A stretch of 64,000 bases of DNA from Candidatus Omnitrophota bacterium. GTDB taxonomy: Bacteria > Omnitrophota > Gorgyraeia > Ghiorseimicrobiales > Ghiorseimicrobiaceae. Position numbers and translations under genes: made by a program. The first letter of the stretch is position 1; each line of letters starts with the position of its first letter. Positions 10,405-44,224 of this stretch are shown here, in pieces. Location of the stretch: assembly GCA_030681595.1 (NCBI GenBank), contig JAUXSB010000055.1, positions 364 through 64,363 of the forward strand. The letters are read 5' to 3'. The notes under the pieces were generated by a model that was given only the letters and a program-made list of their open reading frames with translations, had not been told where the DNA came from and did not search any database.

Positions 10405-10407
10405 CCT

Positions 10408-16213: not shown

Positions 16214-16224
16214 CGAGAAGCATC

Positions 16225-21416: not shown

Positions 21417-21456
21417 TTCCCACCTCCGAGGTGGGAAACGGTTAGAGTATAAATAT

Positions 21457-22500: not shown

Positions 22501-22523
22501 CGCGGAACAATGCGGAAAAGTAT

Positions 22524-22985: not shown

Positions 22986-22986
22986 A

Positions 22987-23448: not shown

Positions 23449-23484
23449 TAAAATACCAGGTAGCGGGTAGAGAGAAATATCACG

Positions 23485-30103: not shown

Positions 30104-32864
30104 GAGGAGAGCACTATTATATTTTATAATTATTTTCTTGTGCGCACCTGCCGTTTACGCTTTCGAAAATGCCGATTGCCTTGCTTGCCACCAGGAAAAA
30201 AATTTTACTACAGAGCGTCAAAATAAGACAGTTTCGCTTTATGTAAACAAGCAGGAATTTAAGCAATCCGTTCACGGCGGCCTCGTATGCATTACCTGCC
30301 ACGCCGACCTTACTAATAGCGATTTTCCCCATAAAACACCTCTGCCGCCTGTAAATTGCATAATTTGCCATAAGGATATGCAGAAAGGGTTTTCAGGCAG
30401 CGTTCATGGGAAAGCTTTGGATAGAGGCGATAATCTTGCTCCCCGGTGCCAGAGTTGCCATGGCGCACATAACATCCGTTCTGTAAAGGATAAGGATTCT
30501 AATCTGTCCGCGTTGCGCGTTCCCTTTGTCTGCGGTTCATGCCACAGCGAAGGAAGCCCAGTGCAACTTCAACGTGAGATACACCAGAGTCACATTTTAG
30601 AGAATTATTCGGAAAGTATCCACGGAGAGGGCCTTTTTAAAAAAGGCCTAATCGTAAGTGCTACCTGTGTTTCCTGCCATGGCGCGCACGAGATATACCC
30701 TCATACAGACCCGCGGTCGTCAATCGCGCATGAAAATGTCGTAGATACCTGCCTAAAATGCCATGCTCAGATTGAAGAGGTTCATAGAAAAGTAATTAAC
30801 GGCGAATTATGGGAGGATAGGCCGCAAGCTATTCCTGTTTGTGTTGATTGCCACGAGCCGCATAAGGTGAGAAAAGTTTTTTATGAGCAGGGTGTGGCAG
30901 ATAAGGATTGCCTTTTGTGTCACGCGAAAGAGGAAATTAAATCATCGTCTGACGGCCGCTCTCTCTTTGTAAATTATGATGAGCTCAAGGGTTCTATGCA
31001 TTCTAAAACCTCCTGCGCTAAATGCCATAGTGAAGTTTTGCCTTCAAAAGAGCGCGCATGCGAAACAATAAAGTCAAAAGTTAATTGTGCGGTTTGTCAT
31101 AGCGATCAGGTGGGGCAGTATCAGCAAAGCACTCACGGCAAGCTTTATAATCAAAAAGATCCCAATGCGCCGTCATGTATAGAATGCCATGGAGCGCATT
31201 CTGTATTAAGCAAGAATAATGTTACATCGCAGACGTATCCAACAAATGTGCCGGTGTTGTGCGCTAGATGCCATAGAGAAGAAGAAAAGGCCGCGATTCG
31301 TTATCAGGGCAAAGAACATGAAATACCTGAGCATTATACGGAAAGTATCCACGGTAAGGGCTTATTGAAGAGTGGGCTTGTGGTAACAGCTATGTGCACT
31401 AGCTGTCATACGGCGCATATGGAATTGCCGTCACAGGATCCGCGCTCAAGCGTTAACCGTAGTAATATCGCCTCTACTTGTGCTAAGTGCCATAAAGGAG
31501 TTTATGAAAAATATATGGGCAGTATTCACGCCCCAGGGAAGAGCAAAACCCCTGATAAGCTTCCAGTATGCAGTGATTGTCATAGCGCGCATTCAATTAA
31601 GCGCACAGATATGGATACATTTAAATTTGATATTATGAATATCTGTGGCAAATGCCATTTAGATATCTCCAAAACATATTTTGAGACTTTTCATGGCAAA
31701 GCCACCAAGCTTGGTTATGCTAAGACTGCCAAATGTCATGACTGTCATGGGGCGCATGAGATCTTGCCTCCTGAAGATGCTCACTCCAGCTTAAGCCGTG
31801 AAAATATTATTTCTACATGTCAAAAATGCCATCCGGGCGCAACCAAGAGATTTGCAGGATATTTAACGCATGCCACTCATCACGATCCAAAGAAATACCC
31901 TTGGATTTTCTTGACTTTCTGGGCGATGACCGCGCTTCTTGTCGGCACATTTGTAGCCAGCGGGATTCATGTACTTTTATGGCTTCCAAAATCTTTGCAA
32001 ATGAGGCGGCTCTATCCGTCAAAAGCTTACGACCCTAATGAAAAGCAGTACATAAGGTTTTCTTTATTAAACAGGATACTTCATGCGGTAATGATTGTAA
32101 GTTTCTTGACCCTTTCTATTACCGGGATGACGCTAAAATTTTCTTATACGAAATGGGCAATTTTTATCTCGCGTCTTTTAGGAGGGTTTGAGGTTTCCGG
32201 GTTTCTGCACCGCTCGGCCGCGGTTTGCTTATTTGGGCTTTTTGCTGTCCATATTTGGGATCTCCTGCGTCGTAAGCGTTGTGAATTTAGAACTTGGAAA
32301 AACATGCTTTTGGGCCCAAACACGATACTTTTTACATTAAAAGACGTGCGTGAATTTATCGCGACAATTAAATGGTATATGGGCAAAGGTGAACGGCCGC
32401 AATACGGGTGCTGGACTTATTGGGAAAAGTTTGATTATTTCGCGGTATTTTGGGGTATTGCGGTTATCGGTTTTTCAGGGCTTATGCTTTGGTTTCCTGA
32501 AATCTTTACCAGAATTTTACCGGGTTGGGTCATTAATGTCGCGACCATTGTCCATAGCGACGAGGCCCTGTTGGCTGTCGGTTTTATTTTTACAATACAT
32601 TTTTTCAATACGCATTTTCGGCCGGAGAAGTTTCCTATGGATACGGTTATTTTTACAGGACGCCTGCCTTTAGAAGATTTAAAGCATGAAAGGCCGGCTG
32701 AATATGAAGAGCTTCTGGCGCGTAAGGAGTTTGAAAAACGCCTTGTCCTTCCCATGCCTCCAAAAGCAATGAAAACAATTAGGATTTTTGCCTGGACTGC
32801 GCTCATAATAGGTTTAAGCCTTGTTGTCTGTATTATTTATACGATGATATTTGCATATAAATGA
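30093..32864 (+). CDS. Giant multiheme cytochrome c (~19 CxxCH) fused to a C-terminal cytochrome-b (HydC/FdnI-like) membrane domain; second CbcL-like protein.
   Basis: 19 CxxCH motifs counted. Signal peptide 'LLYFIIIFLCAPAVYA'. C-terminal TM domain 'ILHAVMIVSFLTLSITGMTLKF...HRSAAVCLFGLFAVH...'. 923 aa. Confidence 0.8.
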   Translation: MRHKRRALLYFIIIFLCAPAVYAFENADCLACHQEKNFTTERQNKTVSLYVNKQEFKQSVHGGLVCITCHADLTNSDFPHKTPLPPVNCIICHKDMQKGFSGSVHGKALDRGDNLAPRCQSCHGAHNIRSVKDKDSNLSALRVPFVCGSCHSEGSPVQLQREIHQSHILENYSESIHGEGLFKKGLIVSATCVSCHGAHEIYPHTDPRSSIAHENVVDTCLKCHAQIEEVHRKVINGELWEDRPQAIPVCVDCHEPHKVRKVFYEQGVADKDCLLCHAKEEIKSSSDGRSLFVNYDELKGSMHSKTSCAKCHSEVLPSKERACETIKSKVNCAVCHSDQVGQYQQSTHGKLYNQKDPNAPSCIECHGAHSVLSKNNVTSQTYPTNVPVLCARCHREEEKAAIRYQGKEHEIPEHYTESIHGKGLLKSGLVVTAMCTSCHTAHMELPSQDPRSSVNRSNIASTCAKCHKGVYEKYMGSIHAPGKSKTPDKLPVCSDCHSAHSIKRTDMDTFKFDIMNICGKCHLDISKTYFETFHGKATKLGYAKTAKCHDCHGAHEILPPEDAHSSLSRENIISTCQKCHPGATKRFAGYLTHATHHDPKKYPWIFLTFWAMTALLVGTFVASGIHVLLWLPKSLQMRRLYPSKAYDPNEKQYIRFSLLNRILHAVMIVSFLTLSITGMTLKFSYTKWAIFISRLLGGFEVSGFLHRSAAVCLFGLFAVHIWDLLRRKRCEFRTWKNMLLGPNTILFTLKDVREFIATIKWYMGKGERPQYGCWTYWEKFDYFAVFWGIAVIGFSGLMLWFPEIFTRILPGWVINVATIVHSDEALLAVGFIFTIHFFNTHFRPEKFPMDTVIFTGRLPLEDLKHERPAEYEELLARKEFEKRLVLPMPPKAMKTIRIFAWTALIIGLSLVVCIIYTMIFAYK

Positions 32865-32924: not shown

Positions 32925-33902
32925 ATGCATAACAAAACCAGAAACCAGAAACCAGAAGCCAGAAGCCAGAAAATTATTTCTTTTTACCGGTTTGTATGTT
33001 TGATTATATTTTTGTCTTCTTCCCATGTTTCTTTTGTAATTGCGCAGGAGAAGGAGTTCAAAAAGGGATGCCGCGCCTGCCATAGCGAACAAATAGATAA
33101 ATGGGATGCGTCAGAGGTCAGGCATTTTCCTTACGCTCGGGAAAAATGTGAGTCTTGCCATGCGGCGGAGCATAAAAAATTTACCCCGTTAGAGAAAAAC
33201 AGCGATAAGGTTAACAGTGAAAACATGGTTAGTAATGGTGAATTAACTCAGGCATCAGCAGGTACTGTTGGAGAAAGTTCTCTAACGGGGTTTACCGCAG
33301 AACAGGAGAAGCCTTGCTTAATCTGCCATGATTTAAATTCGGAAAAAATCAAAAAAGCGCATTTTTCCGGCGATTTAACCGGCGTAAATTGTTTTAACTG
33401 TCATTATACGCATGCCGCGGATAAAAAAGGCCTGCTTAAGGAATCTGTACATGAGCCGTTTGTTTCAGGTATGTGCGATGCCTGCCATAATATCAGCGCT
33501 GAAGGTAAAATAGAAGTGAAGGGACAAACCAAGAAAATCTGCCTTGCCTGTCATTCCAGTTTACTAACAAAGGACGATACAGTAAAACATTCCGGTTATG
33601 ATATGCTGGAATGTGTTGATTGTCACAATCCCCACACTAGTAGTGAAAAATGGCTTTTAAAGAAGAAAATAACACAAATTTGCTTTGATTGTCATGGTAA
33701 AGAGGAGGCGGCAAAGCACCCGTATGATGTAGTGCCTTCACAAAAAATAAATCTTGACAAAGGCAATGAAATATGGTTAACTAATGATAGGCAAATGAGT
33801 TGCGTAAGCTGCCATAATCCTCATTCAGCAAAAATTCCCTTTCTGCTGAGAGAGTCCCTCGAGGATGGGAAGCTCTGTAATATTTGTCATCCAAAACAAT
33901 AA
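32925..33902 (+). CDS. Decaheme c-type cytochrome with an N-terminal signal anchor. Contains a heptamer-repeat-encoded N-terminal stretch and an internal MITE-TIR-bounded insertion.
   Basis: 10 CxxCH (CRACH, CESCH, CLICH, CFNCH, CDACH, CLACH, CVDCH, CFDCH, CVSCH, CNICH). 'TRNQKPEARSQK' is encoded by (aaccaga)n. Confidence 0.8.
   Translation: MHNKTRNQKPEARSQKIISFYRFVCLIIFLSSSHVSFVIAQEKEFKKGCRACHSEQIDKWDASEVRHFPYAREKCESCHAAEHKKFTPLEKNSDKVNSENMVSNGELTQASAGTVGESSLTGFTAEQEKPCLICHDLNSEKIKKAHFSGDLTGVNCFNCHYTHAADKKGLLKESVHEPFVSGMCDACHNISAEGKIEVKGQTKKICLACHSSLLTKDDTVKHSGYDMLECVDCHNPHTSSEKWLLKKKITQICFDCHGKEEAAKHPYDVVPSQKINLDKGNEIWLTNDRQMSCVSCHNPHSAKIPFLLRESLEDGKLCNICHPKQ
33184..33292. mobile_element. 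MITE-related insertion, copy 5 (~109 bp) inside the decaheme cytochrome ORF. Bounded by 'ccccgttagaga' and 'tctctaacgggg', with an internal sequence unlike copies 1-4.
   Basis: Both 12-nt termini match the TIRs of the family in inverted orientation at the expected spacing. Encodes the in-frame linker 'FTPLEKNSDKVNSENMVSNGELTQASAGTVGESSLTGF' between heme motifs. Confidence 0.45.
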
Positions 33903-33915
33903 AAGGAGTAAAAGC

Positions 33916-34893
33916 ATGAAAAGGAAAAATCTTTTTATAAGTTTATTAGTGAAATTATTCACGGTGATATTTTTCACTATAATTTTTTGCGGTTATTCGG
34001 GCTTAAGATTTTGTTTTGGGGAAGCAGCCAGCCGATATAAATTTCTTTATGATTTAAGTTCTAATACTTCCGGAATAGGTTCTCTTAATCAGCCAGCGGG
34101 TATAGCTGTTGATATTGCGGGGAATATTTACGTGGCAGATACCGTGAACAGCCGAGTGGTGGTCTTTGATGAGTTGGGAAAAATAAAACTCAGTTTTGGA
34201 AAATTAGGAGATAAAGCAGGGGAATTAAATGCTCCAATGGCGCTAATTGTCGATTCAAAGGGAGAGAAAGTATATGTAGCGGATTCATCCAATAACCGGG
34301 TACAGGTGTTTAAAATTAATGGCGAATTTATTTCAACGATAGATTTAAGCAAGGCTCTTAGCGATAAAGACAGGCTAGTACGGCCGATTGGGATCGCTAT
34401 TTCAAGCCAAGGCAATATTTACATTTCAGATGCGGATAATAATTATATCCGAGTTTATGATAGCGCAGGGAATTTTTTGTTTAAATTCGGGGGTTTCGGT
34501 GCCGAAGAAGGCAAACTCTGCCTGCCGGTGGGGTTATCTATTGATAAAAAAGATAATGTTTATGTGGTGGATATGAATAACGCAAGGCTGCAGATTTTTG
34601 ATAAAGAAGGAAAATTTTTATCGAAAATTGGCTCTCCCGGGGATACAAAAGGCAGCTTCGGTAAACCGAAGAGTGTTTATGTGGATAATAAAGGGGTGAT
34701 TTATGTTTCCGATGGAGCGAATCTAGTTATCCAAGCATTTGATAAACAGGGAAACTTTATAGATTTAATTGGGGCGGAGAAAGAAAAAGAACTACAGTTT
34801 GCTTCTCCGTTTGGATTGAGCGGGTATAATAACCGCCTTTATATAACTGATAGATGGAGAAATAGCGTAAGAGTTTATGAGGTTAAAAATTAA
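33916..34893 (+). CDS. NHL-repeat six-bladed beta-propeller protein with an N-terminal signal/TM. Start moved to the ATG at 33916, behind the RBS 'aaaggag'.
   Basis: Six repeats of the type 'P.GIAVD..GNIYVADT.NSRVVVFD..GKF' (NHL). The upstream part of the track ORF overlaps the cytochrome gene by 38 nt. Confidence 0.75.
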   Translation: MKRKNLFISLLVKLFTVIFFTIIFCGYSGLRFCFGEAASRYKFLYDLSSNTSGIGSLNQPAGIAVDIAGNIYVADTVNSRVVVFDELGKIKLSFGKLGDKAGELNAPMALIVDSKGEKVYVADSSNNRVQVFKINGEFISTIDLSKALSDKDRLVRPIGIAISSQGNIYISDADNNYIRVYDSAGNFLFKFGGFGAEEGKLCLPVGLSIDKKDNVYVVDMNNARLQIFDKEGKFLSKIGSPGDTKGSFGKPKSVYVDNKGVIYVSDGANLVIQAFDKQGNFIDLIGAEKEKELQFASPFGLSGYNNRLYITDRWRNSVRVYEVKN

Positions 34894-34914: not shown

Positions 34915-36000
34915 ATGAAAAAGAATTTGGTTTTACTGTTAGTATTAGGATTATTGGTGGGTGTATATAGTTTTTCTTTTGCCAGCGTGGTAAATACTAA
35001 ACACGATATGTTTTTTATGAGCAAAGGAATTGACCCTAATGTGTGCGGTTATTGTCACGTTCCGCACAATGCGGCTGGTGATAAAATCTGGTCAACATGG
35101 GCAAATGAAGCGCAGCTAACTAGTGGGCCTTCAAGTACCATCGGTAATATGTGTTATACCTGTCACGATGGAACGGCAACGTCTTTAGGCCAGACTACCG
35201 CGTTTAATGCGGCTTTACAGCAGCATAAAACAGATACTGGGACAGATTGTAATATTTGCCATACAGTACATGATAATGCCAATGGGAAGTTTCTTGGTAT
35301 CGCTAAGACTCAGAGCGCAAATACAGAGTCGGCTACATACTGCGAAACCTGTCATGACGCGACAATGTATCCGGGGGCTGATCCGCACGGTGACCATTTA
35401 GCGGGAACCGAGCATCCGTATAAGGATACAGGCGCGGTATTAGATGAAAGCTGTAATGCCTGCCATCAGATGCATGGCGCGGTAAATTATACTACTACTT
35501 CTTTGACTAACCCGATACTTAAGGTAGCTAATGCCGATTCAGCCTATTGTGCGACGTGCCATGTTGGATATGTGCAGGCGGCTATCGGCGGTAATAAACA
35601 TCCGGCTAACTTGTCATCCGGTGGTTCTTGGGGTAAGGTTGACTGTGCAACTTGCCATGATCCGCATCAGCCGGCTGATTCTGGAAGGCCGTCTATACTT
35701 AAGGATGCCAATACTGATTCCGCATATTGCGCAACTTGCCATCAGGCAACGGGAACAGTTAAAGGACCCACAGTAGGAACATTTAGCCATCCTACAAGCG
35801 TTGGCTTTACAACAGTCGGTTTAACACCCGCGGGTAATAACATTGACGACGATAATGACGGCGCAGATTATCCGGGTAATTCCGCGTCTTTAGTCTGCGA
35901 AAGCTGCCATTCGGTACATAAGAAAGGTGTGAGTGGTAAACTTCTGCGTATTACGGCAACAGCTGGCGCGTTATGCGTTAACTGTCATAGCGGTAAATAA
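34915..36000 (+). CDS. Secreted multiheme c-type cytochrome (~9-10 CxxCH), paralog A of a tandem triplet.
   Basis: Signal peptide. Conserved N-terminal block 'KHDMFFMSKGIDPNVCGYCHVPHNAAGDKIWSTWANEAQL'. CxxCH spaced with distal His ('CHDPHQ', 'CHSVHK'). S/T/G/N-rich linkers. Confidence 0.8.
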   Translation: MKKNLVLLLVLGLLVGVYSFSFASVVNTKHDMFFMSKGIDPNVCGYCHVPHNAAGDKIWSTWANEAQLTSGPSSTIGNMCYTCHDGTATSLGQTTAFNAALQQHKTDTGTDCNICHTVHDNANGKFLGIAKTQSANTESATYCETCHDATMYPGADPHGDHLAGTEHPYKDTGAVLDESCNACHQMHGAVNYTTTSLTNPILKVANADSAYCATCHVGYVQAAIGGNKHPANLSSGGSWGKVDCATCHDPHQPADSGRPSILKDANTDSAYCATCHQATGTVKGPTVGTFSHPTSVGFTTVGLTPAGNNIDDDNDGADYPGNSASLVCESCHSVHKKGVSGKLLRITATAGALCVNCHSGK

Positions 36001-36036
36001 GCTTAGAGTAAGAGCGGAGAGCTTAGAGTAAAAAGT

Positions 36037-36078
36037 AGAGGGTAGCCTGTTAACTTACCGGCTACTCTCTACTTCTAA
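36037..36078 (+). terminator. Hairpin 'aagtagagggtagcc-tgttaacttacc-ggctactctctactt' (14-bp stem, one mismatch), followed by 'tctaaag'.
   Basis: Inverted repeat read directly between the cytochrome paralogs. Preceded by the direct repeat 'agcttagagtaa' x2. Confidence 0.4.
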
Positions 36079-36080
36079 AG

Positions 36081-37238
36081 ATGACTTATTTAAAATTTTT
36101 TATATCTATAGTTTTTATATTTTTTGCTTGGGCGAATAGTTTTGCCGGCGTCGCCGGCTCAAAGCACGATATGTTTTTTTTAGGCAAAGGCACAGACCCC
36201 AACGTCTGCGGCTACTGCCACATCCCGCATAACGCCGCAGGCGTAAAAATCTGGTCTAAGTGGGGTAATGAGGCGCGGCTTTCCGGCTCTTATACAGAAA
36301 TAGGCAATATGTGTTATACCTGCCATGACGGGACCGCTACCAATATCGGACAGTCAACAGCTTTTAATACCAGCCTGCAACAACATAAAATAACTTCCGG
36401 GCAAGATTGTAATATGTGCCATTCGGTACACGATAATATTAACGGTATGTTTATGAATGTACCAGTAACACAAAATTTTTATTGCGTCAGCTGTCATAAT
36501 GCAACGCAAAACGCAGGCGGGTTAGGCGATTATACCTATGCTGCTACATCTAAGGGGCATCACCCAAGTTATTTTAGCTCAACCACGAGAAGATTCCGCC
36601 ATAGTACAGGTTCTCCGCCTACGGGCGCCTCATGTTCTGCTTGTCATCATGAACGTACACAGAGGGCTTCCAGCTATAATAGTTGCGGGCTTTGTCACGA
36701 AGTCCACGCGGGAGTGAATTATTCCACTGCCAGTGTATCTAATCCTATATTAAGGATTGATAATACTGATAGCGTCTTTTGCGCCAGTTGTCATCCGATA
36801 ATCGTGCAAAGTACAAGCAGCGGCAATAAGCACCCGGCGAATTTAAGTTCCGGCGGCAGCTGGGGCAAGGTTGATTGCATGGCTTGCCATGATTCTCATC
36901 AGTCAAATCAGGATACGGTTTTTATCTTGCGCGATAAAAACGTTGATTCGGCATATTGTCTTACTTGCCATGATACAACAAGCACCGCCAACGGCCCAAA
37001 AATCGGAAACGGCCATCCGGTAAATGTAGCGTTTGAGACGACACCGGTAGATCCTTCGAAAGCTCCGGCAGGAAATGCTATTAATGACGATGGTTTTTAC
37101 GGTGTAGATTACCCGGCAAATTCGGCTAATGTAATTTGTGAAACTTGTCATTCCATACATAGAAAAGGTGTGGCTAGTCCATTATTACGCATAGATAATA
37201 GCGGGAGCGCCCTTTGCCTTAATTGCCACCAGATGTAA
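36081..37238 (+). CDS. Secreted multiheme c-type cytochrome, paralog B of the tandem triplet.
   Basis: 'SKHDMFFLGKGTDPNVCGYCHIPHNAAGVKIWSKWGNEARL' N-terminal block shared with 34915 and 37245. About 10 CxxCH. Confidence 0.8.
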   Translation: MTYLKFFISIVFIFFAWANSFAGVAGSKHDMFFLGKGTDPNVCGYCHIPHNAAGVKIWSKWGNEARLSGSYTEIGNMCYTCHDGTATNIGQSTAFNTSLQQHKITSGQDCNMCHSVHDNINGMFMNVPVTQNFYCVSCHNATQNAGGLGDYTYAATSKGHHPSYFSSTTRRFRHSTGSPPTGASCSACHHERTQRASSYNSCGLCHEVHAGVNYSTASVSNPILRIDNTDSVFCASCHPIIVQSTSSGNKHPANLSSGGSWGKVDCMACHDSHQSNQDTVFILRDKNVDSAYCLTCHDTTSTANGPKIGNGHPVNVAFETTPVDPSKAPAGNAINDDGFYGVDYPANSANVICETCHSIHRKGVASPLLRIDNSGSALCLNCHQM

Positions 37239-37244
37239 TAATAA

Positions 37245-38417
37245 ATGAAAAATAAAAAATTAAAAAGTAAAAACAAAAAACTTGTACTGTCTGGATTTTT
37301 TTTCTTTTTTACCACCTTCTTTTTATTTTATGGCGTTTTTGCCTTTGCCGGAGTCGCGGGTTCAAAACACGACATGTATTTTTTAGCTAAAGGCACAGAT
37401 CTCAATGTCTGTAGTTATTGCCATATCCCGCATAATGCGGCAGGTGAAAAGATCTGGTCTACTTGGGCGAATGAAGCGCGGCTTTCAGGCTCATATACAG
37501 AAATAGGCAATATGTGTTATACCTGTCATGATGGGACTGCCACAAATCTCGGACAGACATCAGCGTTTAATGCGTCTCTGCAACAGCACAAAATGTCTTC
37601 GAGCCAGGACTGTGATATGTGCCATAGCGTGCACGATAATACCAATGGAAAGTTTATGAATGTTGTAAAATTAGATTCATATTGTTCCTCTTGCCATAAT
37701 GCGGTTACTAATGCCGGGGGATTGGGCGATCATGTCAACGGGGTAAATCACCCGGATTGCGGCGCCTGCCATGGCGCGACAGAACTCGATCTTTTAGGTT
37801 CCGATGGAGATAATGCAAGTTGTCATCTTTGTCATGCCAAGGCACACGGGGCGGCTAATTATTCAACACCTAGCGTTGCAAATCCCATTTTAAAATGGGG
37901 TAATCCTGACAGCCAAATGTGTGGCGTCTGCCATGCGGATAAAGTTCAGGCAAGCAGTGGGGGCGCTAAGCACCCTGCTAACATGAGCAGCTCCGGCTCT
38001 TATGGAAAATTAATTTGCCAAACATGCCATGATGTGCATCAGCCGGGAGTAACGAACCATCTGTATTTATTGAGTGAGCCGAATATCGATTCTCAGATGT
38101 GTATCAATTGCCATAATGGCACAAGCGGCCCGGACATTGGCCACTCGCATCCTTACCAAATAGGTTTTGGGGCTATTATTCCTGTAGATGCATCGGCAAC
38201 TACTGGCACGCCAGCAGGCAATGTGATTAACGATAATGATTATGTTACTGATCATATATGGCCGGATGAATATCCGGATTATCCGACAAACTCCGCGAAT
38301 TTAATCTGCGAAACCTGCCATGGTATTCATAATAAATCAGATAATCCGGGTACCAAATTATTACGGATAACTAACACTAATTCCGCGTTGTGTTTAAATT
38401 GTCATACGGATAAATAA
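37245..38417 (+). CDS. Secreted multiheme c-type cytochrome, paralog C of the tandem triplet.
   Basis: 'SKHDMYFLAKGTDLNVCSYCHIPHNAAGEKIWSTWANEARL'. About 10 CxxCH. Insertion 'NDNDYVTDHIWPDEYPDYPTNSA' at the position where the paralogs carry 'DDDNDGADYPGNSA' and 'NDDGFYGVDYPANSA'. Confidence 0.8.
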   Translation: MKNKKLKSKNKKLVLSGFFFFFTTFFLFYGVFAFAGVAGSKHDMYFLAKGTDLNVCSYCHIPHNAAGEKIWSTWANEARLSGSYTEIGNMCYTCHDGTATNLGQTSAFNASLQQHKMSSSQDCDMCHSVHDNTNGKFMNVVKLDSYCSSCHNAVTNAGGLGDHVNGVNHPDCGACHGATELDLLGSDGDNASCHLCHAKAHGAANYSTPSVANPILKWGNPDSQMCGVCHADKVQASSGGAKHPANMSSSGSYGKLICQTCHDVHQPGVTNHLYLLSEPNIDSQMCINCHNGTSGPDIGHSHPYQIGFGAIIPVDASATTGTPAGNVINDNDYVTDHIWPDEYPDYPTNSANLICETCHGIHNKSDNPGTKLLRITNTNSALCLNCHTDK

Positions 38418-38481: not shown

Positions 38482-39927
38482 ATGAAAAATAATAAAACAC
38501 CAGTTTTTCTTTTAGCTACTTTAGGGATTTTTCTGTTTATTGTGCCTATTTATGCCGAGCATTATGAAGGCCGGGATTGCAGCGAGTGCCATCAGGAGCA
38601 TAATAATGACGAATATAAAATTTTAACCGATACAGCAGTCAATGGCGGTGACGTTCCTTGTTTTAGCTGTCATTCGCAAGAGAGGCCGAGTAGTCCCGCG
38701 CCCGATACAAAGAAGGAATTTGATATGGCTAGTTCCCGCCATCCCTTAGGAAGCGACAAGGAATGCCTTATCTGCCATGAATTAAACAATAAGCATAATG
38801 ATGGGCATATAGATTCTTGGCCGGATGTGGGGTTGCGTGATCCCGACTCGCAAGATTCTCACGTTTATAGCGGCGATAAAATCAATAATTTTTGTTTGAG
38901 TTGTCATGATAATTCGCCGGTTAGCCTTGGGGATCCGCCGCGGACGCCTATTGATTTATCTAGCGCGTATGAATTTAGCGGACACGGCCGCATAGATATA
39001 AACGAGCCATGCACAAGCTGCCATAAACCCCATGCCTCCATAAATAAGCCTTATATGATTCAAGACGTGATTAATGAAACTGTGATTACAGGAAATGACA
39101 ATAGCGTCTGTTTTGCCTGCCATAGTTATTCAGAAGGTATTTATCCCGGGAAGAACACTTATTTAACCAGCGAGCACGGGATAGAGAATAAACTCTGTAT
39201 TGATTGCCATAATCCCCATGGGGACAATAAGGACCTTTGTTATCTCTGCCATAACGACAAATATTCCGCGCATTATAGCGCAAAGCGCGATAAGCTTTGC
39301 ATTGACTGCCATAATCCCCATGAAAAAGGCGGACTAAAAATGACCAAAGAAGATGAGGAAAAATTGTGTTTTGCCTGCCATAAAGAATTGGAGAGGGAGT
39401 TCGGAAACTTGCGCGACGGCGTATCGGGAAGCTTTTCGCACCATAAAGTTGACGATGAAGAATACGGAGGAGGAAAAGTAGAATGTTTCGACTGCCATAA
39501 TCCGCATATAGTGAATAAAATGAATATCGTAAGCGATCCGGATTCATCGAGTATGAATATGCCGCCAAGGGCGTTCCCGAAAGACAGCTATAGTTATAAA
39601 ACAGATATTTACGATGAATTTTGCCTTGCCTGCCATGACGGCTCGCGCATTTCGGCAAAAAATATAAAATCAGAATTAGACAGTGTTTCGAATTTAGAAA
39701 CCGAATTTACGCAAGGCCAGGCTAACAACCTGCATAAAACCCATAAAGAAAGAGGCTATGGCTGTCAGAATTGCCATAACGCGCATTCAAGCAATGGGAC
39801 AAGCGGCATTAGAAAGGGCGCCTTATTAGATGAGCGGCTCGCTATTACTCATTGGAACCAAACGGATAAATACTCAGATGGAAAGAATTCCTGCAGCGGT
39901 TCCGGGTTAGCGTTAGGATGCCATTAA
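38482..39927 (+). CDS. Multiheme c-type cytochrome (~13 CxxCH) with a signal peptide; candidate periplasmic or outer component of a porin-cytochrome conduit.
   Basis: Signal 'PVFLLATLGIFLFIVPIYA'. 13 CxxCH including repeated 'C(I/F)DCHNPH' units. 481 aa. Confidence 0.8.
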   Translation: MKNNKTPVFLLATLGIFLFIVPIYAEHYEGRDCSECHQEHNNDEYKILTDTAVNGGDVPCFSCHSQERPSSPAPDTKKEFDMASSRHPLGSDKECLICHELNNKHNDGHIDSWPDVGLRDPDSQDSHVYSGDKINNFCLSCHDNSPVSLGDPPRTPIDLSSAYEFSGHGRIDINEPCTSCHKPHASINKPYMIQDVINETVITGNDNSVCFACHSYSEGIYPGKNTYLTSEHGIENKLCIDCHNPHGDNKDLCYLCHNDKYSAHYSAKRDKLCIDCHNPHEKGGLKMTKEDEEKLCFACHKELEREFGNLRDGVSGSFSHHKVDDEEYGGGKVECFDCHNPHIVNKMNIVSDPDSSSMNMPPRAFPKDSYSYKTDIYDEFCLACHDGSRISAKNIKSELDSVSNLETEFTQGQANNLHKTHKERGYGCQNCHNAHSSNGTSGIRKGALLDERLAITHWNQTDKYSDGKNSCSGSGLALGCH

Positions 39928-39936
39928 AAAGTTAAA

Positions 39937-41736
39937 ATGCAAAATGTAAAACGCAAAATGAATATAGTAAGAAAGCCATTTTTATTTATCATTATATTTT
40001 TTTGCGCTTCTTTATTAGTTTTTAAAAGTTCTTATGCTAATCCTACCGAGAGGTTGAATATAGACGCGGAAGTTGAATATAAGGTAAGCGATTTTGAGCG
40101 CGATCCTGAGCCGGCGCTGTCTTCAACGGGCAGCAATTTAGCTCAGGATTATCGTTTTTATTTAGAAGGCAGTATATTAAAAGAAGGCCTGCTTGATTCA
40201 TTATTTGGTGTTTCATTAGGCGACAAGTATAGAAAAGACGACACGGATTTTGAAAATAAATTGCGTTTTGATTATGGCCGCTGGCTGACTATCGATACCT
40301 TGAGCCATCACGAAACAGACGAAGAAATATTCTTTTCCGGAACCACTGAGCCGCAATCGCCCATTCACACTATTATTAAAAAATATGAGACTCGGCTTGC
40401 GTTAGATCCCGCTACATCTCTTTACTATAGCTTTGAAGATAATGAGCGCAAAGATGTCCTTTTGGGCACAACCACAGGAGAGAAAACAAGGTCTGAAACT
40501 GTAAGGCTTAAGCGGGAAAATGGCCCTTTGAATTTTAACAGCGAATACAGGGAAGTTAATTTTGACGACCTTTTGGGCACAAGGAGTGATGTCAGGAGCC
40601 GTGATTTAAACCTGGATATGTCTTACCGTCCGATGGATTCTTTTAGTATTTCGGGATTTTTAGAAAATAAAAAAGATATAGATATTATTAATAATACGGC
40701 CTTGGATTCAGATGAGTACCGTTTGGAGTTTGCCTTAAAGCCGCTTAAAGAGCTAAAACTGCGTAACCGTTTAAAATTAAGCCAGGATAACGACACTAAG
40801 ACAGGCGAAGATTTATCAAATAAGTCTGATGAAATCATTATTAATCTGGACCCAGTTAAGCAGTTGGGTGTTGAGTTCGCTTATAAAAGAGAGGATGAAG
40901 ATAAGGAAAGGGTATCTTCGGAAATAGATTCTGCAATTAATGAAGAGAGGCTTAGGCTTAGAATTACGCCTTTTTCTTGCGTAAATATCCAGTCTGGATA
41001 CGAGGTTTCGGATAAAACAAGCACTTCTTCTACTGAAAATATAAAGAATACCAAGCTTTATTCGGATATTTCCCTAACCCCTATAAATAACTTACGGTTA
41101 GGGGTTAATTTTTCCAATGCCAAGCAAAAAAATACCTTTACTTCTACGGTAGAATCTGATACAAATTTAATATCGGCCTCTACGCAGTATAGAGTAAACG
41201 AGAAAGCGTCTTTATTTGTGCAGATAGATACTTCCAAGACAGATAATCCTTCAACCGGCGCGTTCACTAAGACGGATACTTTAAGTTCGCGTATCAGCGT
41301 TGACCCTTTTTCTTTTTTGAATATGTCTTTGCGGAATAGCGCTCAGGAGACTAGCGGAACATCTACTTCGGCATTATCCGAGAGGCTATTGAATGCGTTG
41401 GAACTGGATATAAAACTTCTGGATAACCTCAAAGTTTCCACAGAGTATGAATTAGTTATGTCCAGCGGCACTACTTCTTCCGATGAGAACCTGTTTGATA
41501 TCGCGACATTTTATAATATAGGCAAGTTTGATTTCTCTTTGCGTTTTCAGGACAGAGGTGTTACCGGAGACAATCCAACGGATAAAACCGCGGTGTTAAG
41601 CAATATTAAATACCGGCTTTCGCCTAATGCCGTATTCAGCTTTAGGTTTTCTCTTATTAACTACACAGATAAATTAACCGCGGCCAACAGCTACGATTCA
41701 ACCACAATCGAGAGTTTGTTATCGATGAGGTTTTAA
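39937..41736 (+). CDS. Outer-membrane beta-barrel protein (porin-like; candidate cytochrome-sheathing porin of an MtrB/OmbB-like conduit).
   Basis: Signal peptide 'KPFLFIIIFFCASLLVFKSSYA'. 599 aa rich in S/T/N/D/Y with alternating hydrophobic beta-strand dyads throughout. C-terminal '...LLSMRF' ending in Phe (OMP signature). Directly between two multiheme cytochrome genes with 9-nt and 2-nt spacers. Confidence 0.65.
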   Translation: MQNVKRKMNIVRKPFLFIIIFFCASLLVFKSSYANPTERLNIDAEVEYKVSDFERDPEPALSSTGSNLAQDYRFYLEGSILKEGLLDSLFGVSLGDKYRKDDTDFENKLRFDYGRWLTIDTLSHHETDEEIFFSGTTEPQSPIHTIIKKYETRLALDPATSLYYSFEDNERKDVLLGTTTGEKTRSETVRLKRENGPLNFNSEYREVNFDDLLGTRSDVRSRDLNLDMSYRPMDSFSISGFLENKKDIDIINNTALDSDEYRLEFALKPLKELKLRNRLKLSQDNDTKTGEDLSNKSDEIIINLDPVKQLGVEFAYKREDEDKERVSSEIDSAINEERLRLRITPFSCVNIQSGYEVSDKTSTSSTENIKNTKLYSDISLTPINNLRLGVNFSNAKQKNTFTSTVESDTNLISASTQYRVNEKASLFVQIDTSKTDNPSTGAFTKTDTLSSRISVDPFSFLNMSLRNSAQETSGTSTSALSERLLNALELDIKLLDNLKVSTEYELVMSSGTTSSDENLFDIATFYNIGKFDFSLRFQDRGVTGDNPTDKTAVLSNIKYRLSPNAVFSFRFSLINYTDKLTAANSYDSTTIESLLSMRF

Positions 41737-41738: not shown

Positions 41739-42656
41739 ATGTGGTATCAAGTATCCCCGCCTGTGGCGGGACAGGCAGGTATCAAGTATCAAGTAATAAT
41801 TGCTGTTGCGGTTTCGCTATTGTACTTTTGTTTTCTGCCGGCTTATGGCTCGTCTGAGTGCAGCCAGTGCCATCAAATAGAGGCAGAAAGTTTTGCTTTG
41901 ACTAAACACGCGATAGATAAAAACTGCGATATTTGCCACGGGAGCAGCGAGAAACACTTAACTGCAGAGGTTAAAAAGGATAATATTATTAATCCCAACG
42001 GGTTAAATCTTAAAAAGGGGAATGGTATATGCCTTAGCTGTCATACGGAAAAAGCGAAAGACGTAAGTGAGAGGTTTGTTGCTGTAGCGAGCCTGCATGA
42101 TGATTTACGTTGTTATGAATGCCATACGGTACATTTAAAAAGCTCTGACGAAGAGGCCGATGTAGATTTATTTAAAGACGACCTATATGTTGATTGTTCC
42201 CTTTGTCATAGTAATCAGGCGGAAAATTTTTCTGATTCCGGGCATGGTTTGTCAGGAATAAAATGTTTAGACTGCCATAAGCCGCATGAAGCAAAAACAA
42301 TAAGTCAGGATATAGAAGGAGAAATTGATAAATGCTTGTCTTGCCATCCGGCTCAGGAGTTGGAATTTAAATCTTTTTACGCGCATCCGCTTCGCCAGAG
42401 GCAGATTAGGTGCAGTGATTGCCATAACCCACATAGTAACAATTATGATAAAATGCTCAAAAAAGACGCGGATGATTTATGCGGGGATTGCCACGCCGGT
42501 ATTATGATTGAAGGGGGTAAGCATCCGCTAAGCAAGAATACGAACCATCCGTTTAAAACGGTGGAATGCCTGGATTGTCACCGGCCTCACGGTTCAAATT
42601 TTGATAAGCTGTTAAAACACAATATAGACAATATCTGCAAAACATGCCATAATTAA
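41739..42656 (+). CDS. Multiheme c-type cytochrome (11 CxxCH) with a signal peptide; second cytochrome partner of the beta-barrel.
   Basis: CSQCH, CDICH, CLSCH, CYECH, CSLCH, CLDCH, CLSCH, CSDCH, CGDCH, CLDCH, CKTCH. N-terminal hydrophobic 'VIIAVAVSLLYFCFLPAYG'. Confidence 0.8.
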   Translation: MWYQVSPPVAGQAGIKYQVIIAVAVSLLYFCFLPAYGSSECSQCHQIEAESFALTKHAIDKNCDICHGSSEKHLTAEVKKDNIINPNGLNLKKGNGICLSCHTEKAKDVSERFVAVASLHDDLRCYECHTVHLKSSDEEADVDLFKDDLYVDCSLCHSNQAENFSDSGHGLSGIKCLDCHKPHEAKTISQDIEGEIDKCLSCHPAQELEFKSFYAHPLRQRQIRCSDCHNPHSNNYDKMLKKDADDLCGDCHAGIMIEGGKHPLSKNTNHPFKTVECLDCHRPHGSNFDKLLKHNIDNICKTCHN

Positions 42657-42875: not shown

Positions 42876-43769
42876 ATGTGTAATAGCAATACGAAGAAAT
42901 TATTTTCATTTTTCACTTTTAATTTTTCACTTTTAATTTTTTTAGCCGGTTGCGCATCCGGCCCGTCCAGCTATTTTAGGTTAAAGCCGGTATCTAAGGA
43001 TACACATGTAAAAACGGCTATTATTCCTTTTACTAATCTTACATCTGAAAAAGACGCGGAGAAAAAAATCGCCTACGCATTAATAACACACCTTCTAAAT
43101 ACGACTTATTTTGATATTGTTGAAACAGGAGAGGTACAGAAAGCGATGCGCGATGGTAAGGTGCGCAAAGACGAGGACTTATCTTTAGAGAATATAAAAA
43201 GTATCGGCCAGCTTACCGGCGCAGACGTCCTTTTAATGGGCGTGGTTGAAGAATACAAGATTGATTCCAGTACTCTGTTAGGCGAAAAAGTATTCGTTCC
43301 GGAAGCCTCTGTCAGCCTGCGGCTTGTCAGCGTCAAAGACGGCTCAATCGTCTGGTCGGTAAACCACCACCGCAGAGGCGATGACCGCGTGACTATCTTT
43401 GGTATGGGCAGGGTAGATTCCATAAGTACTCTTACGGATATAATCATAAAGAATAGCGTTGATTCTTTAATGCGGGTGATGAGAAAAAGGCGTAATGCCT
43501 TAGCGATGTTAAAGAACAACCCGCCTGCCGAAGAAGCCGTTGGTAAGGATGCTGTTATAAAAAAAACAGATAAACAGGGCAGAAAAGATGCGGGCCGGCA
43601 AAAGGCGATAGAGGATGCCATAAAAGGATCCGGGAGCAAAAAAGAAATAAAAAAAGAAAAGGCTGTTTCTTTGCCGCCTGTTAAAGATGTTACTAAGCCT
43701 AAAGACGCACGCCAGGAAATAAAAGACCAGTATAACCAGGAATACGAAAAAATCAAAAAACAATACTAA
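42876..43769 (+). CDS. Outer-membrane lipoprotein of the CsgG/FlgO-like family (curli-secretion-channel-like fold), with a K/E-rich low-complexity C-terminus.
   Basis: Lipobox 'LIFLAGC'. 'TAIIPFTNLT...KIAYALITHLLNTTYFDIVETGEVQKAM...IGQLTGADVLLMGVVEEY' matches the CsgG-family N-terminal consensus (AVxPFxN...L...FxVVER...GAD.ll.G.V). Confidence 0.45.
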   Translation: MCNSNTKKLFSFFTFNFSLLIFLAGCASGPSSYFRLKPVSKDTHVKTAIIPFTNLTSEKDAEKKIAYALITHLLNTTYFDIVETGEVQKAMRDGKVRKDEDLSLENIKSIGQLTGADVLLMGVVEEYKIDSSTLLGEKVFVPEASVSLRLVSVKDGSIVWSVNHHRRGDDRVTIFGMGRVDSISTLTDIIIKNSVDSLMRVMRKRRNALAMLKNNPPAEEAVGKDAVIKKTDKQGRKDAGRQKAIEDAIKGSGSKKEIKKEKAVSLPPVKDVTKPKDARQEIKDQYNQEYEKIKKQY

Positions 43770-43789: not shown

Positions 43790-44224
43790 ATGGCAAGATT
43801 CAGAATGTTGGGGGCGGCCATATTTATTTTTTTATTTTTTCTGTTTGCCATCAGTTATTGTATTTCTCAAGTAGCCAATGATGGTGATTACTGCTTATCC
43901 TGCCACAATAAGGACGTAAATTTAAGCAAGAAATTCCTGCATCCATTAGTTAAGGAAAAGAAATGCCGGGCTTGTCATATATCTTATGATAACAGCCGTC
44001 ATAAAGAAGGCGATGAACCTGTATTTAGTGCGTGTATAAGTTGCCATAGTGAAGAAAAATTAGGGCGTTCGCATCCGGTAGGAGATGGCGTCATTGATCC
44101 TAATACCAAAGATACGATGACTTGCGTATCCAGCTGCCACATACCGCATGGATCAGACTATAAGTATCAGCTGGCATTTAAGAACAATATGGAGTTATGT
44201 CTTAGTTGTCATAAGGATTTTTGA
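43790..44224 (+). CDS. Small c-type cytochrome (4-5 heme motifs) with a signal peptide.
   Basis: 'AAIFIFLFFLFAISYC' signal. CLSCH, CRACH, CISCH, CVSSCH (C-x3-CH), CLSCH. Confidence 0.7.
   Translation: MARFRMLGAAIFIFLFFLFAISYCISQVANDGDYCLSCHNKDVNLSKKFLHPLVKEKKCRACHISYDNSRHKEGDEPVFSACISCHSEEKLGRSHPVGDGVIDPNTKDTMTCVSSCHIPHGSDYKYQLAFKNNMELCLSCHKDF

Follow-up and report, generated by a model that had tools for sequence, protein, structure and literature searches.

Tandem OmcE-like deca- and undecaheme cytochromes in a Candidatus Omnitrophota genome: candidate subunits of an electron-conducting filament or surface wire

The OmcE family has a tetraheme architecture in about 210–260 aa, and OmcE itself carries 4 hemes in about 230 aa. 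OmcE polymerizes head-to-tail, each subunit lending a His to heme 2 of its neighbor, and the hemes of OmcS superimpose on those of OmcE (PMC12203936, PMC9473688). The Geobacter omcE locus is ordered ResB-CcsB-MHC-MHC-NHL-OmcE-barrel-glycosylation genes (MHC, multiheme cytochrome), and its content agrees with that of the minimal OmcE cluster in the literature. Two preprints describe, from uncultured phyla, relatives of OmcE that carry additional hemes and lie beside porins and scaffold/propeller genes: five-heme OmcE-like proteins that exceed OmcE by one heme at a similar length (bioRxiv 10.1101/2025.10.22.684050), and "OmcE-like" MHCs with 8–13 hemes from peat Acidobacteriota and Verrucomicrobiota (10.64898/2026.05.27.727921).

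The window analyzed here, 64,000 nucleotides of a Candidatus Omnitrophota MAG, contains three adjacent paralogs on the + strand, of 361, 385 and 390 aa as given in a preliminary description of this DNA. Paralog A (34915–36000; 361 aa, A-type) is a predicted secreted decaheme with 10 CxxCH motifs in five di-heme repeats. Paralogs B (36081–37238; 385 aa) and C (37245–38417; 390 aa) are undecahemes of the B/C-type, with 11 CxxCH each and not the roughly 10 first attributed to all three; the shared CxxCH order holds apart from one motif added between hemes 4 and 5 (C185 in B, C172 in C). Pairwise identity is 56–59%. The N-terminal block K29–L68, which had been called near-identical, is indeed the best-conserved part, but 29 of its 40 positions are identical across the three; in 15 Omnitrophota copies, conservation was 0.76–0.86 at residues 21–120 vs 0.46–0.72 elsewhere. 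Inspection of the sequences bore out the description of S/T/G/N-rich proteins with signal peptides and no membrane anchor: the N-termini are signal-peptide-like and end in ...SFA followed by (G/S)V, the S+T+G+N fraction is 0.34–0.35, and neither a lipobox Cys nor a hydrophobic stretch past the signal region was found. The acidic segments reported as lineage-specific insertions are mostly a loop conserved across the family (consensus IDDDGxxGxDY..ATAN; across 114 sequences, conservation of I310 and D318 is 90% or more) that aligns with "AADGNLGALD" of OmcE; a true insertion, of ~9 aa, occurs in C only. The doubled-CXXCH profile suggested earlier, PF09699 (Paired_CXXCH_1), matched 3–5 stretches in each protein (A, 82.2 bits; B, 71.6 bits; C, 58.9 bits; gathering cut-off 20.6), and TIGR01905 scored 49, 48 and 35 bits (cut-off 25.2).

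A search of the PDB with A alone retrieved OmcE of Geobacter sulfurreducens (7tfs_A, E 6e-8) and of Desulfuromonas soudanensis (9yuq_N, E 2.6e-6), with the N-terminal block and the C-terminus aligned. With the family profile (hmmsearch), these entries scored E 1.4e-15 and 1.1e-14, and the next unrelated match came at 1e-7. Alignment of the A/B/C family with a 33-sequence OmcE alignment (hhalign) gave probabilities of 99.5–99.6% and E 1e-23 to 2e-23. Both ends of the proteins are OmcE-like. The head of OmcE (7TFS, 9YUQ), x-x-x-S/T-K-H-D-L/M ... C..CH.PHNA ... W ... C..CHDG, recurs at the mature N-terminus of A, B and C as G/S-V-x-x-S/T-x-H-D-M ... C..CH.PHNA. The C-terminal unit, C..CH.VH ... 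LR ... LC..CH in OmcE, recurs as C..CH.(V/I)H ... LLRI ... LC.NCH, and in both cases the chain stops 2–3 residues past the last heme motif. These alignments show homology to OmcE and identify A, B and C as predicted Sec-exported deca-/undecaheme c-type cytochromes of the OmcE superfamily. Because 10–11 CxxCH in 361–390 aa depart from the tetraheme architecture, we filed them as an expanded superfamily relative and not as an OmcE ortholog.

Of the likeness first drawn to OmcS, OmcE and OmcZ together, the part concerning OmcE is thus the specific one. OmcS (6EF8) shares with A, B and C a CH-xx-H after heme 1 near the mature N-terminus, but it has six hemes and a different fold, and A, B and C are not members of its family; in the profile search of the PDB it was a marginal match (E 3.6e-3, one short stretch), and OmcZ was not among the matches. 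Two further assignments were rejected. For the MtrA/DmsE decaheme family, TIGR03508 scored 55–59 bits against a cut-off of 192 and MtrA gave no match to the family profile at E<1; for the MtrC/OmcA lipoproteins, the lipobox Cys is missing and MtrC matched the family profile at E 0.14–0.23. PF22113, used as a test for the MtrC-type domain II/IV architecture, gave partial matches for A (40 bits) and B (28 bits, under the cut-off of 30) and none for C. No known periplasmic reductase family scored above its cut-off.

The whole length of OmcE (1–232) maps onto residues 1–149 of A, which in this alignment form a compact, complete OmcE-like tetraheme unit. The segment holds the four OmcE-type CxxCH in order (C44, C80, C112, C143) and four distal His: H30 (KHD), H51 (CHVPH), H104 (QQHK) and H119 (CHTVHD). 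H104 corresponds to OmcE H149 by its place in the repeat, although the alignment column differs. OmcE also aligned in other registers, at hemes 7–10 (98.6%), 5–8 (97.3%) and 3–6 (95.1%), and hemes 7–10 form a second OmcE-like unit. All 10 pairs among the five repeat segments align with each other (92–98.8% probability). The repeat, of the form [x-H-x ... CxxCH-xx-H ... CxxCH], has regular heme/His bookkeeping; the di-heme repeat and the bis-His bookkeeping are common to OmcE, and the 10 CxxCH and 10 distal His are conserved in the family. All hemes therefore appear to be bis-His ligated. Each protein is thus built of five tandem di-heme repeats against two in OmcE, and one subunit equals ~2.5 OmcE subunits covalently joined. 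The loops are much shorter than those of OmcE, and the heme density is 33 aa per heme vs 52 in OmcE. In B and C, the additional heme is reminiscent of the fifth heme in the first preprint, whose five-heme proteins, unlike A, B and C, have no 2.5-fold repeat expansion; the 8–13-heme proteins of the second may belong to the family of A, B and C. In the accessible text of the two preprints we found no description of a five-repeat architecture or of tandem paralog arrays. We incline to the view that A, B and C are candidates for a long-subunit electron-conducting filament or surface wire of the OmcE kind, assembling head-to-tail.

The AF2 monomer model without hemes (pLDDT 85) had no PDB matches besides MtrA and, as a tentative fold match, OmcE, which are both elongated heme wires, and A, B and C are accordingly modeled as elongated; the compact globular periplasmic cytochromes raised earlier as a counter-case were not among the matches. 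The sole low-confidence segment of the model is P50-H51-N52, which is suggestive only with regard to head-to-tail ligation of heme 2. In fold, the model came closest to the monomeric decaheme MtrA (Shewanella baltica, 6R2Q chain A), which lacks the OmcE head. This match agrees with a reading that we consider possible though doubtful, in which the proteins are monomeric extracellular wires, that is, single decaheme rods of roughly MtrA length at the cell surface. They would dock on the conduit of MtrA homolog, barrel and 13-heme cytochrome described below, or on the NHL propeller as a scaffold, and could be alternative terminal reductases or oxidases that differ in potential or substrate, like the Shewanella paralogs MtrC, MtrF and OmcA; the conserved head would then be a docking element and not a polymerization interface. 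Ten hemes and ten distal His permit complete intrachain ligation and fit a closed monomer equally well, which counts against a filament, as does the small amount of protein left for insulation at 33 aa per heme. For a monomer at the surface, a lipobox or other anchor is missing, and the N- and C-terminal units are both specifically OmcE-like, down to the end of the chain just past the last heme. A long intramolecular wire from one polypeptide of tandem small heme modules is also seen in GSU1996-type proteins; GSU1996 itself is periplasmic. Their repeats are c7-type triheme domains, unlike those of A, B and C (TIGR04257 21 bits vs a cut-off of 40), and they lack both the OmcE head and neighboring NHL or barrel genes.

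The filament or surface-wire reading draws on the gene neighborhood, which mirrors the Geobacter omcE cluster and shows conserved synteny. The order in the window is ResB-CcsB-(MHC-cyt b)-MHC-NHL-A/B/C-MHC-barrel-MtrA homolog, all on the + strand. ResB (28260–29327) and CcsB (29324–30103), of system II cytochrome c maturation, stand immediately upstream of the cluster. They are followed by a 923-aa protein (30093–32864) that joins a 19-heme cytochrome to a membrane domain of the cytochrome b type (Ni_hydr_CYTB). This protein, a candidate quinol oxidase of the inner membrane, is missing from L006, L007 and L009 among the four other Omnitrophota loci. The next gene encodes a 10-heme cytochrome of 325 aa (32925–33902), which is 32% identical (E 5e-21) to the 330-aa MHC at the equivalent position of the Geobacter omcE locus. 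The NHL-repeat beta-propeller directly upstream of A (33865–34893; 342-aa ORF, with a likelier start at the MKRKN Met, about 33916) is 33% identical (E 9e-30) to the NHL protein whose gene immediately precedes omcE in Geobacter. In place of a canonical lipobox, the propeller of the window carries an atypical FTIIFC motif, and the missing canonical lipobox in the Omnitrophota NHL is a point against a filament. Farther upstream, an NapC/NirT-like 8-heme protein (24801–25640, +), an 11-heme + cytochrome b561 fusion (25675–27516, +) and a c554-like tetraheme (27589–28125, +) probably feed the pathway in the inner membrane and periplasm.

The OmcS region, too, has NHL propeller genes associated with it. 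Among the fetched loci, which are non-independent samples, 63 of 90 head-bearing MHCs had an NHL gene directly upstream, with 9 more in tandem arrays, compared with 11% of all ORFs. The NHL-paired head-bearing MHCs span 4 to 14 hemes, and one NHL gene serves 2–4 head-sharing paralogs. Both observations are compatible with the docking role of the monomer reading, and the range of heme numbers is easier to reconcile with a head used for docking or handling than with one that polymerizes in every case; the same reading gains from the peat preprint, whose accessible text describes a "porin-scaffold-cytochrome" EET cluster with the 8–13-heme "OmcE-like" MHCs in MAGs and contains neither the word Omnitrophota nor the word NHL. 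An RNA stem-loop with a 15-bp stem and no U-tract (36033–36074, +) lies directly after gene A, and the 86-nt A-B spacer, which holds it and a second, smaller one, folds with -33.5 kcal/mol (z -3.9). A strong hairpin stands 3' of the A-type gene in four of the five Omnitrophota loci (this one, L006, L007 and L009), and in Zixibacteria-type loci one stands 3' of the family gene; in Geobacter, a canonical terminator comes after omcE. Judged by its hairpin, A would be expressed very strongly, like a structural subunit, which speaks for a filament and against single rods. Zixibacteria-type clusters carry the A/B/C family alongside canonical tetraheme OmcE-like proteins, and these could be the real filament subunits there.

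Downstream of the array lies a 13-heme cytochrome of 481 aa (38482–39927, +) with a signal peptide and no lipobox, which directly follows the paralogs in all five Omnitrophota loci. The gene after it, two genes downstream of the array, encodes a probable outer-membrane beta-barrel of 599 aa (39937–41736, +), which has a signal peptide, ends in ...SMRF and weakly matches Porin_4, and adjoining it is an 11-heme MtrA homolog of 305 aa (41739–42656, +; 6r2q_A E 2.8e-21; TIGR03508 138.6 bits, under the cut-off of 192), likely the cytochrome inserted in the barrel. The conduit that had been proposed close to the paralogs is therefore real. The signature described for OmcE clusters, a beta-propeller, a large barrel and MHCs near the subunit gene, is present here, but the barrel has no detectable homology to Geobacter or Zixibacteria-type barrels. 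Since an MtrA partner accompanies it, the barrel may belong to an ordinary porin-cytochrome conduit and not be a nanowire anchor, which weighs against a filament. That A, B and C are themselves alternative MtrA-type inserts of this barrel is highly improbable: a true MtrA homolog already sits beside the barrel, the TIGR03508 scores and the missing MtrA match given above separate the paralogs from that family, and three to four inserts per barrel would be unprecedented.

The cluster continues with an LpoB/CsgG-like lipoprotein (42876–43769, +) with a canonical lipobox LAGC, conserved in five of five Omnitrophota clusters, and ends with a conserved small tetraheme cytochrome of 144 aa (43790–44224, +). 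Beyond it lie a TPR protein (45946–47766, +), a CcdA/DsbD_2 gene (47813–48526), a second TPR protein (48531–50213, -) with a hydrophobic, probably polytopic N-terminal part, and a GT2 gene (50418–51125), which possibly form a glycosylation and maturation module. The second TPR protein matches L004:14191-15690 of the Geobacter omcE locus (E 2e-27), from about residue 74 and across the hydrophobic part.

The cluster containing the paralogs is conserved in four other Omnitrophota species-level genomes. These carry 2–4 copies per genome, among which the A-type occurs once and always first in the array; the nearest relatives of B and C are the fourth and second copies in L006, respectively. The dN/dS comparison suggested earlier gave 0.19 for B-C, and for A-B and A-C dS was saturated (pS 0.78–0.81) with dN of 0.37–0.40. 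The paralogs are old and under purifying selection, and the split of A from B/C is older than speciation. Paralogs kept for so long fit the functional specialization expected of monomeric wires, but their age and constraint, with the head as the best-conserved part, also count for the filament.

For export past the periplasm, the Sec-type signal peptide is the one pointer in A, B and C, a point against a filament; we know of no secretion signal for OmcE either. The signal peptide without a lipobox also accords with an unlikely alternative, in which A, B and C are periplasmic wires connecting the MHC-cytochrome b quinol oxidases of the inner membrane with the MtrA homolog; as a set of three they would tune the redox window, and the 13-heme protein at 38482 would act as the extracellular partner. 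That protein is already a candidate outer cytochrome, the heme density is very high, as in MtrA, and the DmsE and GSU2203 decaheme families gave weak matches, under their cut-offs, that point the same way. Against it, the nearest characterized relatives, OmcE of two species, are extracellular, the omcE locus offers parallels to the NHL pairing, to the hairpin and to the genes for membrane-TPR and GT2 proteins, and a rod of about MtrA length would be unusual for a diffusible carrier. The copy number also varies, which we judge to be more typical of environment-facing proteins.

For the filament or surface wire of the OmcE kind, we propose the following model. A, B and C would be linear heme wires, produced in an extracellular electron transfer island of a phylum other than those of the OmcE hosts, the Omnitrophota being known from MAGs only. 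Electrons would pass from cytochrome-b-fused MHCs to periplasmic MHCs and on to the conduit of MtrA homolog and barrel, and A, B and C would form the outermost, extracellular arm of the pathway. We infer that the cognate NHL beta-propeller, whose gene lies just before theirs, may handle them and that they may assemble head-to-tail as OmcE does. Because A is the first gene and is followed by the strong 3' hairpin, it would be the abundant major subunit, and B and C, with one extra heme each and the shared conserved head, would be minor or alternative subunits.

The preliminary description had placed three adjacent multiheme cytochrome (MHC) genes in the window, and the open reading frames proved to lie exactly there, all on the + strand: A (34915–36000, 361 aa, 10 CxxCH), B (36081–37238, 385 aa, 11 CxxCH), and C (37245–38417, 390 aa, 11 CxxCH). 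The proteins are 56–59% identical in pairwise comparison, and 29 of the 40 positions in the K29–L68 block (numbering of protein A throughout) are identical in all three. Among 15 Omnitrophota copies, residues 21–120 form the best conserved stretch (0.76–0.86 vs 0.46–0.72 elsewhere). The N-termini are signal-peptide-like and end in SFA↓(G/S)V, none of the three proteins has a lipobox Cys or a further hydrophobic stretch, and S+T+G+N residues make up a fraction of ∼0.35. The acidic insertions thought to distinguish the paralogs turned out to be mostly a conserved loop of the family (consensus IDDDGxxGxDY); only in C is there a true insertion, of ∼9 residues. A dN/dS comparison among the copies gave 0.19 for B–C, with synonymous sites saturated for A–B and A–C. 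The paralogs are old, under purifying selection, and have a conserved head in common. No hematite-binding-type motif was found in A, B, or C, and a DxDxDG calcium-type motif was set aside, as A alone carries it (DDDNDG at 311), without conservation in B or C. The extra CxxCH of B and C sits where conservation is lowest, between hemes 4 and 5, and is comparable to that of the five-heme OmcE-like proteins described in a 2025 preprint, which proposes that their extra heme is solvent-exposed (bioRxiv 10.1101/2025.10.22.684050).

Searched by sequence against all PDB chains, protein A had two significant matches: the tetraheme nanowire subunit OmcE of Geobacter sulfurreducens (7TFS) and its homolog from Desulfuromonas soudanensis (9YUQ), which according to the same preprint forms bundled nanowires. 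A profile of the family, comprising A, B, C, and their full-length relatives, matched 7TFS (E 1.4e-15) and 9YUQ (E 1.1e-14), with the next unrelated chain at 1e-7; OmcS was matched only at E 3.6e-3, and among the PDB chains MtrA gave no match. Profile-profile comparison with a 33-sequence OmcE alignment yielded 99.6% probability (E 1e-23). With hhalign, the entire OmcE (residues 1–232) aligned to A 1–149, which holds hemes 1–4, and alternative alignments placed OmcE in a second register on hemes 7–10 (98.6%, E 9e-16) and in further registers on hemes 5–8 (97.3%) and 3–6 (95.1%), shifted by two hemes each. When five segments were cut from the family alignment, all ten pairs matched at 92–98.8% probability. 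Together, these registers and segment pairs indicate that the protein is built of five tandem copies of a single di-heme repeat; OmcE contains two such copies. An HMMER alignment that set the OmcE N terminus on hemes 1–2 and its C terminus on hemes 8–10 had suggested OmcE with an insertion; the hhalign registers favor the five-fold repeat.

Each repeat comprises a leading His (H30, H104, H167, H229, H292), then CxxCH-xx-H (H51, H119, H187, H251, H335), then a second CxxCH. The OmcE-specific head (mature x-V-x-x-S/T-x-H-D-M, then C..CH.PHNA, W, and C..CHDG) lies in the first two repeats and is also present in the tetraheme OmcE-like proteins of Zixibacteria clusters (GVAETKHNF...CVFCH..HNA). 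The last two repeats resemble OmcE up to the stop codon, 2–3 residues past the last heme motif in both. Nine CxxCH motifs and eight distal His occur without exception in 114 members, and at least 90% of these retain the tenth motif (C354) and the other distal His, H30, H51, H167, and H335. With ten hemes and ten distal His, all hemes are probably bis-His ligated. On these alignments, we assign A, B, and C to the OmcE superfamily. Scores for the NCBIfam DmsE and GSU2203 decaheme families and for UshA-like, NrfH, and HmcA proteins were all far below the cut-offs. In members outside Omnitrophota the third heme motif is CX5CH (C-S-G-x-G-A-C-H; for example, at 10001–11149 of comparison locus L002 and 10004–11149 of L017), so that a plain CxxCH count gives 9 despite ten conserved heme sites.

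The AF2 monomer reached pLDDT 85.3 and pTM 0.79 with 114 sequences (pLDDT 47 with 50), and its sole segment below pLDDT 50, P50-H51-N52, lies inside the most conserved motif. Foldseek of this model against the PDB returned no matches, a failure likewise reported in the literature for the mostly coil proteins OmcS and OmcE. A compact globular periplasmic cytochrome, which the preliminary description had named as the outcome that would refute a surface role, is not what the comparisons point to: the folds it most resembles, MtrA and possibly OmcE, are both elongated heme wires. Elongated wires that bridge the periplasm are improbable, the two PDB matches of A being nanowire subunits. Two observations count against the OmcE-like reading favored below: MtrA fits the fold better than OmcE, and the family is very heme-dense, with 33 aa per heme vs 52 in OmcE. 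The alternative that A, B, and C are monomeric surface wires docking on the conduit or the propeller, analogous to MtrC, MtrF, and OmcA, seems to us rather unlikely.

The window is a heme/cytochrome island. Heme biosynthesis genes at 15–25 kb (15074–24771), encoding HemA, HemC, a HemD/CobA fusion, a radical SAM protein, HemB, and a class-III aminotransferase that is probably HemL, lie directly upstream of the cytochrome cluster; HemB and Aminotran_3 also stand right before the cluster of the Zixibacteria-type locus L002. The upstream part of the cluster encodes a NapC/NirT-like cytochrome, two fusions of an MHC with cytochrome b (Ni_hydr_CYTB; 25675–27516 and 30093–32864, with 11 and 19 CxxCH), ResB, and CcsB. 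We take the two fusions to resemble CbcL-type inner-membrane quinol oxidases; of the four other Omnitrophota loci, three (L006, L007, L009) lack the 923-aa fusion. The core consists of a 10-heme MHC, an NHL β-propeller gene directly upstream of A, A, B, C, and a 13-heme MHC, and the downstream part encodes a 599-aa barrel-like protein, a 305-aa 11-heme protein, an LpoB-like lipoprotein, and a small tetraheme cytochrome. The barrel-like protein has a signal peptide and ends in SMRF, and the 305-aa protein beside it is a true MtrA homolog (6r2q_A, E 2.8e-21), which bears out the conduit previously suspected near the cytochromes. That A, B, and C are alternative barrel inserts is very improbable, since the barrel already has its insert in the MtrA homolog.

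Four other Omnitrophota species-level genomes carry this cluster gene for gene. At its end, in each of these and in the window, lies the conserved LpoB/CsgG-like lipoprotein (42876–43769 in the window, with a canonical lipobox, LAGC↓ASGPSSYFR), which turns up again in cytochrome loci from a Geobacter MAG and from Zixibacteria (L044, L056, L074). About 26 kb upstream of the paralogs, type II secretion or type IV pilus genes (1119–8610; a secretin, a GspF/PilC-like protein, and a GspE/PilB-like ATPase) are a possible export route for surface cytochromes.

We compared this arrangement with the G. sulfurreducens omcE locus, in which the order is ResB, CcsB, a 370-aa MHC, a 330-aa MHC, a 361-aa NHL protein, OmcE, a 752-aa protein without a Pfam match, and glycosylation genes, in agreement with the minimal OmcE cluster as published, which comprises two MHCs, β-propeller lipoproteins, OmcE, and a large barrel. 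The NHL proteins of the two loci are 33% identical (E 9e-30), and the 10-heme MHC of the window is 32% identical to the Geobacter 330-aa MHC (E 5e-21). In addition, a TPR protein (48531–50213, − strand) matches an unannotated 500-aa protein of the Geobacter glycosylation block (E 2e-27), the alignment spanning the hydrophobic, probably polytopic N-terminal part; A, B, and C might be glycosylated. A TPR paralog (45946–47766, + strand) and a GT2 glycosyltransferase (50418–51125, + strand) lie near this gene, and the same TPR family is multi-copy in Nitrospirae OmcE-like loci (L050, L059, L065, L067, L072, L079).

In Zixibacteria-type clusters (L002, L010, L017, and ∼20 similar), four consecutive NHL–OmcE-like cytochrome gene pairs, whose cytochromes are a 9+1-heme family member, two tetrahemes, and a pentaheme, are arranged around a 700–790-aa barrel; TPR and AhpC/TSA-TPR proteins and 13- and 17-heme cytochromes are encoded upstream. 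Across all fetched loci, an NHL gene was found directly upstream of 63 of the 90 head-bearing cytochromes, and 9 more followed another head-bearing gene in tandem, compared with 11% of all ORFs and 19% of MHCs without the head; as the loci are mutually related, these counts give qualitative support. The pairing covers several phyla and subunits of 4, 5, 9–11, 13, and 14 hemes.

An identical protein, annotated as "cytochrome c3 family protein," is recorded for a Candidatus Omnitrophota MAG. Full-length relatives, sharing 34% identity or more from end to end, were found in MAGs only, at 59–82% identity in Omnitrophota and otherwise in many Zixibacteria and in Krumholzibacteriota, Eisenbacteria, Acidobacteriota, Deferrimicrobium, Ignavibacteria, and Verrucomicrobia. 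When 1.84 billion representatives were searched exhaustively with the profile, the result was ∼25 full-length representatives of 375–420 aa and thousands of partial, repeat-based matches in larger MHCs (6,365 at E ≤ 1e-3, many of 700–4,600 aa). Proteins of ∼1,064 aa with 42 CxxCH in Zixibacteria and Ignavibacteriales MAGs (L056, L066, L074) match the profile through the repeat; each is followed by a 6-heme protein, and the LpoB-like profile also matches small lipoproteins nearby in L056 and L074. Omnitrophota- or Zixibacteria-type family genes also occur on contigs labeled Woesearchaeota (L008, an archaeal MAG; only 2.2 kb, with two family copies) and Kerfeldbacteria (L013, a CPR MAG; much of a Zixibacteria-type cluster, with a family member, tetraheme OmcE-likes, barrel, and NHL), both of which are probably mis-binned.

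Omnitrophota genomes carry two (L005, L009), three (the window, L007), or four (L006) copies. L005 and L006 stem from the DeMMO and CG11 groundwater samples. In all five loci the first copy is of the 10-heme, roughly 361-aa type, and the later copies are nearly all 11-heme. In a neighbor-joining tree the first copies form one clade and the later copies another, and B and C of the window each pair with a different L006 copy, indicating that the duplications are older than the split of these species.

A strong stem-loop (36033–36074) lies 3′ of A, and the 86-nt A–B spacer holding it folds at −33.5 kcal/mol (z −3.9). It was recognized by reading and folding the spacer; a consensus terminator scan between the paralogs found nothing because the hairpin has no U-tract. 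Of the four other Omnitrophota loci, three have a similar hairpin after the first copy, and in Zixibacteria-type loci such hairpins stand after the family gene (z −3.9 to −5.9). A textbook terminator comes after Geobacter omcE, and no comparable hairpin was found 3′ of C. The hairpin and the first gene position suggest that A is the major product. Just before the hairpin, at 36001–36030, the spacer contains two copies of an 11-nt direct repeat, GCTTAGAGTAA, which partly pair as a small stem in the MFE fold.

These results establish a five-repeat linear heme-wire, an OmcE-type gene context with a cognate NHL protein, and an adjacent conduit of MtrA homolog and barrel. We lean slightly toward the reading that A, B, and C are exported extracellular electron transfer proteins of the OmcE superfamily, which would form the outermost element of the pathway and could join head to tail like OmcE. 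Within this reading, an extracellular component working with the NHL propeller is likely, and true polymerization of A, B, and C is plausible at somewhat less than even chances. Counted against it are the generic nature of the di-heme repeat, the coexistence of canonical tetraheme OmcE-likes with the family in other phyla, and the barrels, for which no homology was detected among the Omnitrophota (∼600 aa), Zixibacteria-type (700–790 aa), and Geobacter (752 aa) proteins by BLASTP, jackhmmer, or hhalign.

OmcE relies on a His from the adjacent subunit to complete heme 2 (PMC12203936, PMC9473688). Edge-to-edge heme distances reported for OmcE and OmcS are ∼6 Å or less. A comparable logic of one open heme and one spare His may hold at the two chain ends of the periodic array, in which heme count equals distal His count. 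H30 stands seven residues from the start of the mature chain and the chain ends three residues past H358, so the termini could mimic an inter-repeat linker, judging from these positions. The conserved head points to the same partner for B and C, either a neighboring subunit or the single NHL propeller. It is conceivable, though unlikely as a whole, that A, B, and C join by the OmcE-type head and tail they share to build a heteropolymeric extracellular nanowire of 10–11 hemes per subunit, in which A would provide the bulk and B and C an extra, possibly solvent-exposed branch heme, with the NHL propeller as a factor dedicated to assembly or anchoring.

OmcE and its cluster are already known, and in the literature consulted the solved polymerizing cytochrome filaments number five (OmcS, OmcE, OmcZ, and two archaeal), with a second OmcE from Desulfuromonas; the part of such filaments in long-range electron transfer is still debated. 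A 2026 preprint mentions "OmcE-like" MHCs with 8–13 hemes in peat Acidobacteriota and Verrucomicrobiota (10.64898/2026.05.27.727921). In the literature searched, we found no account of the 10/11-heme family, including in Omnitrophota, of its five-repeat architecture, of Omnitrophota tandem paralog arrays, or of the generality of the NHL–head pairing. The family represents an expansion of the OmcE building block, di-heme repeat plus N-terminal head, to 10–11 hemes per chain, spread across uncultured phyla (Omnitrophota, Zixibacteria, Krumholzibacteriota, Eisenbacteria, Acidobacteriota, and others) and almost always with an NHL partner. It is a candidate for structural work on whether a 2.5-fold longer subunit still polymerizes, and the rule that an NHL propeller precedes a head-bearing cytochrome makes the assembly or secretion route of OmcE-type wires testable.

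The cluster provides evidence that the extracellular electron transfer pathway is complete in some Omnitrophota, with implications for their livelihood. This phylum is rich in ultra-small, possibly host-dependent cells. If the heteropolymer were real, it would be the first long-subunit, mixed-subunit cytochrome filament and the first nanowire in Omnitrophota, and it could link these ultra-small cells to minerals or partner cells.
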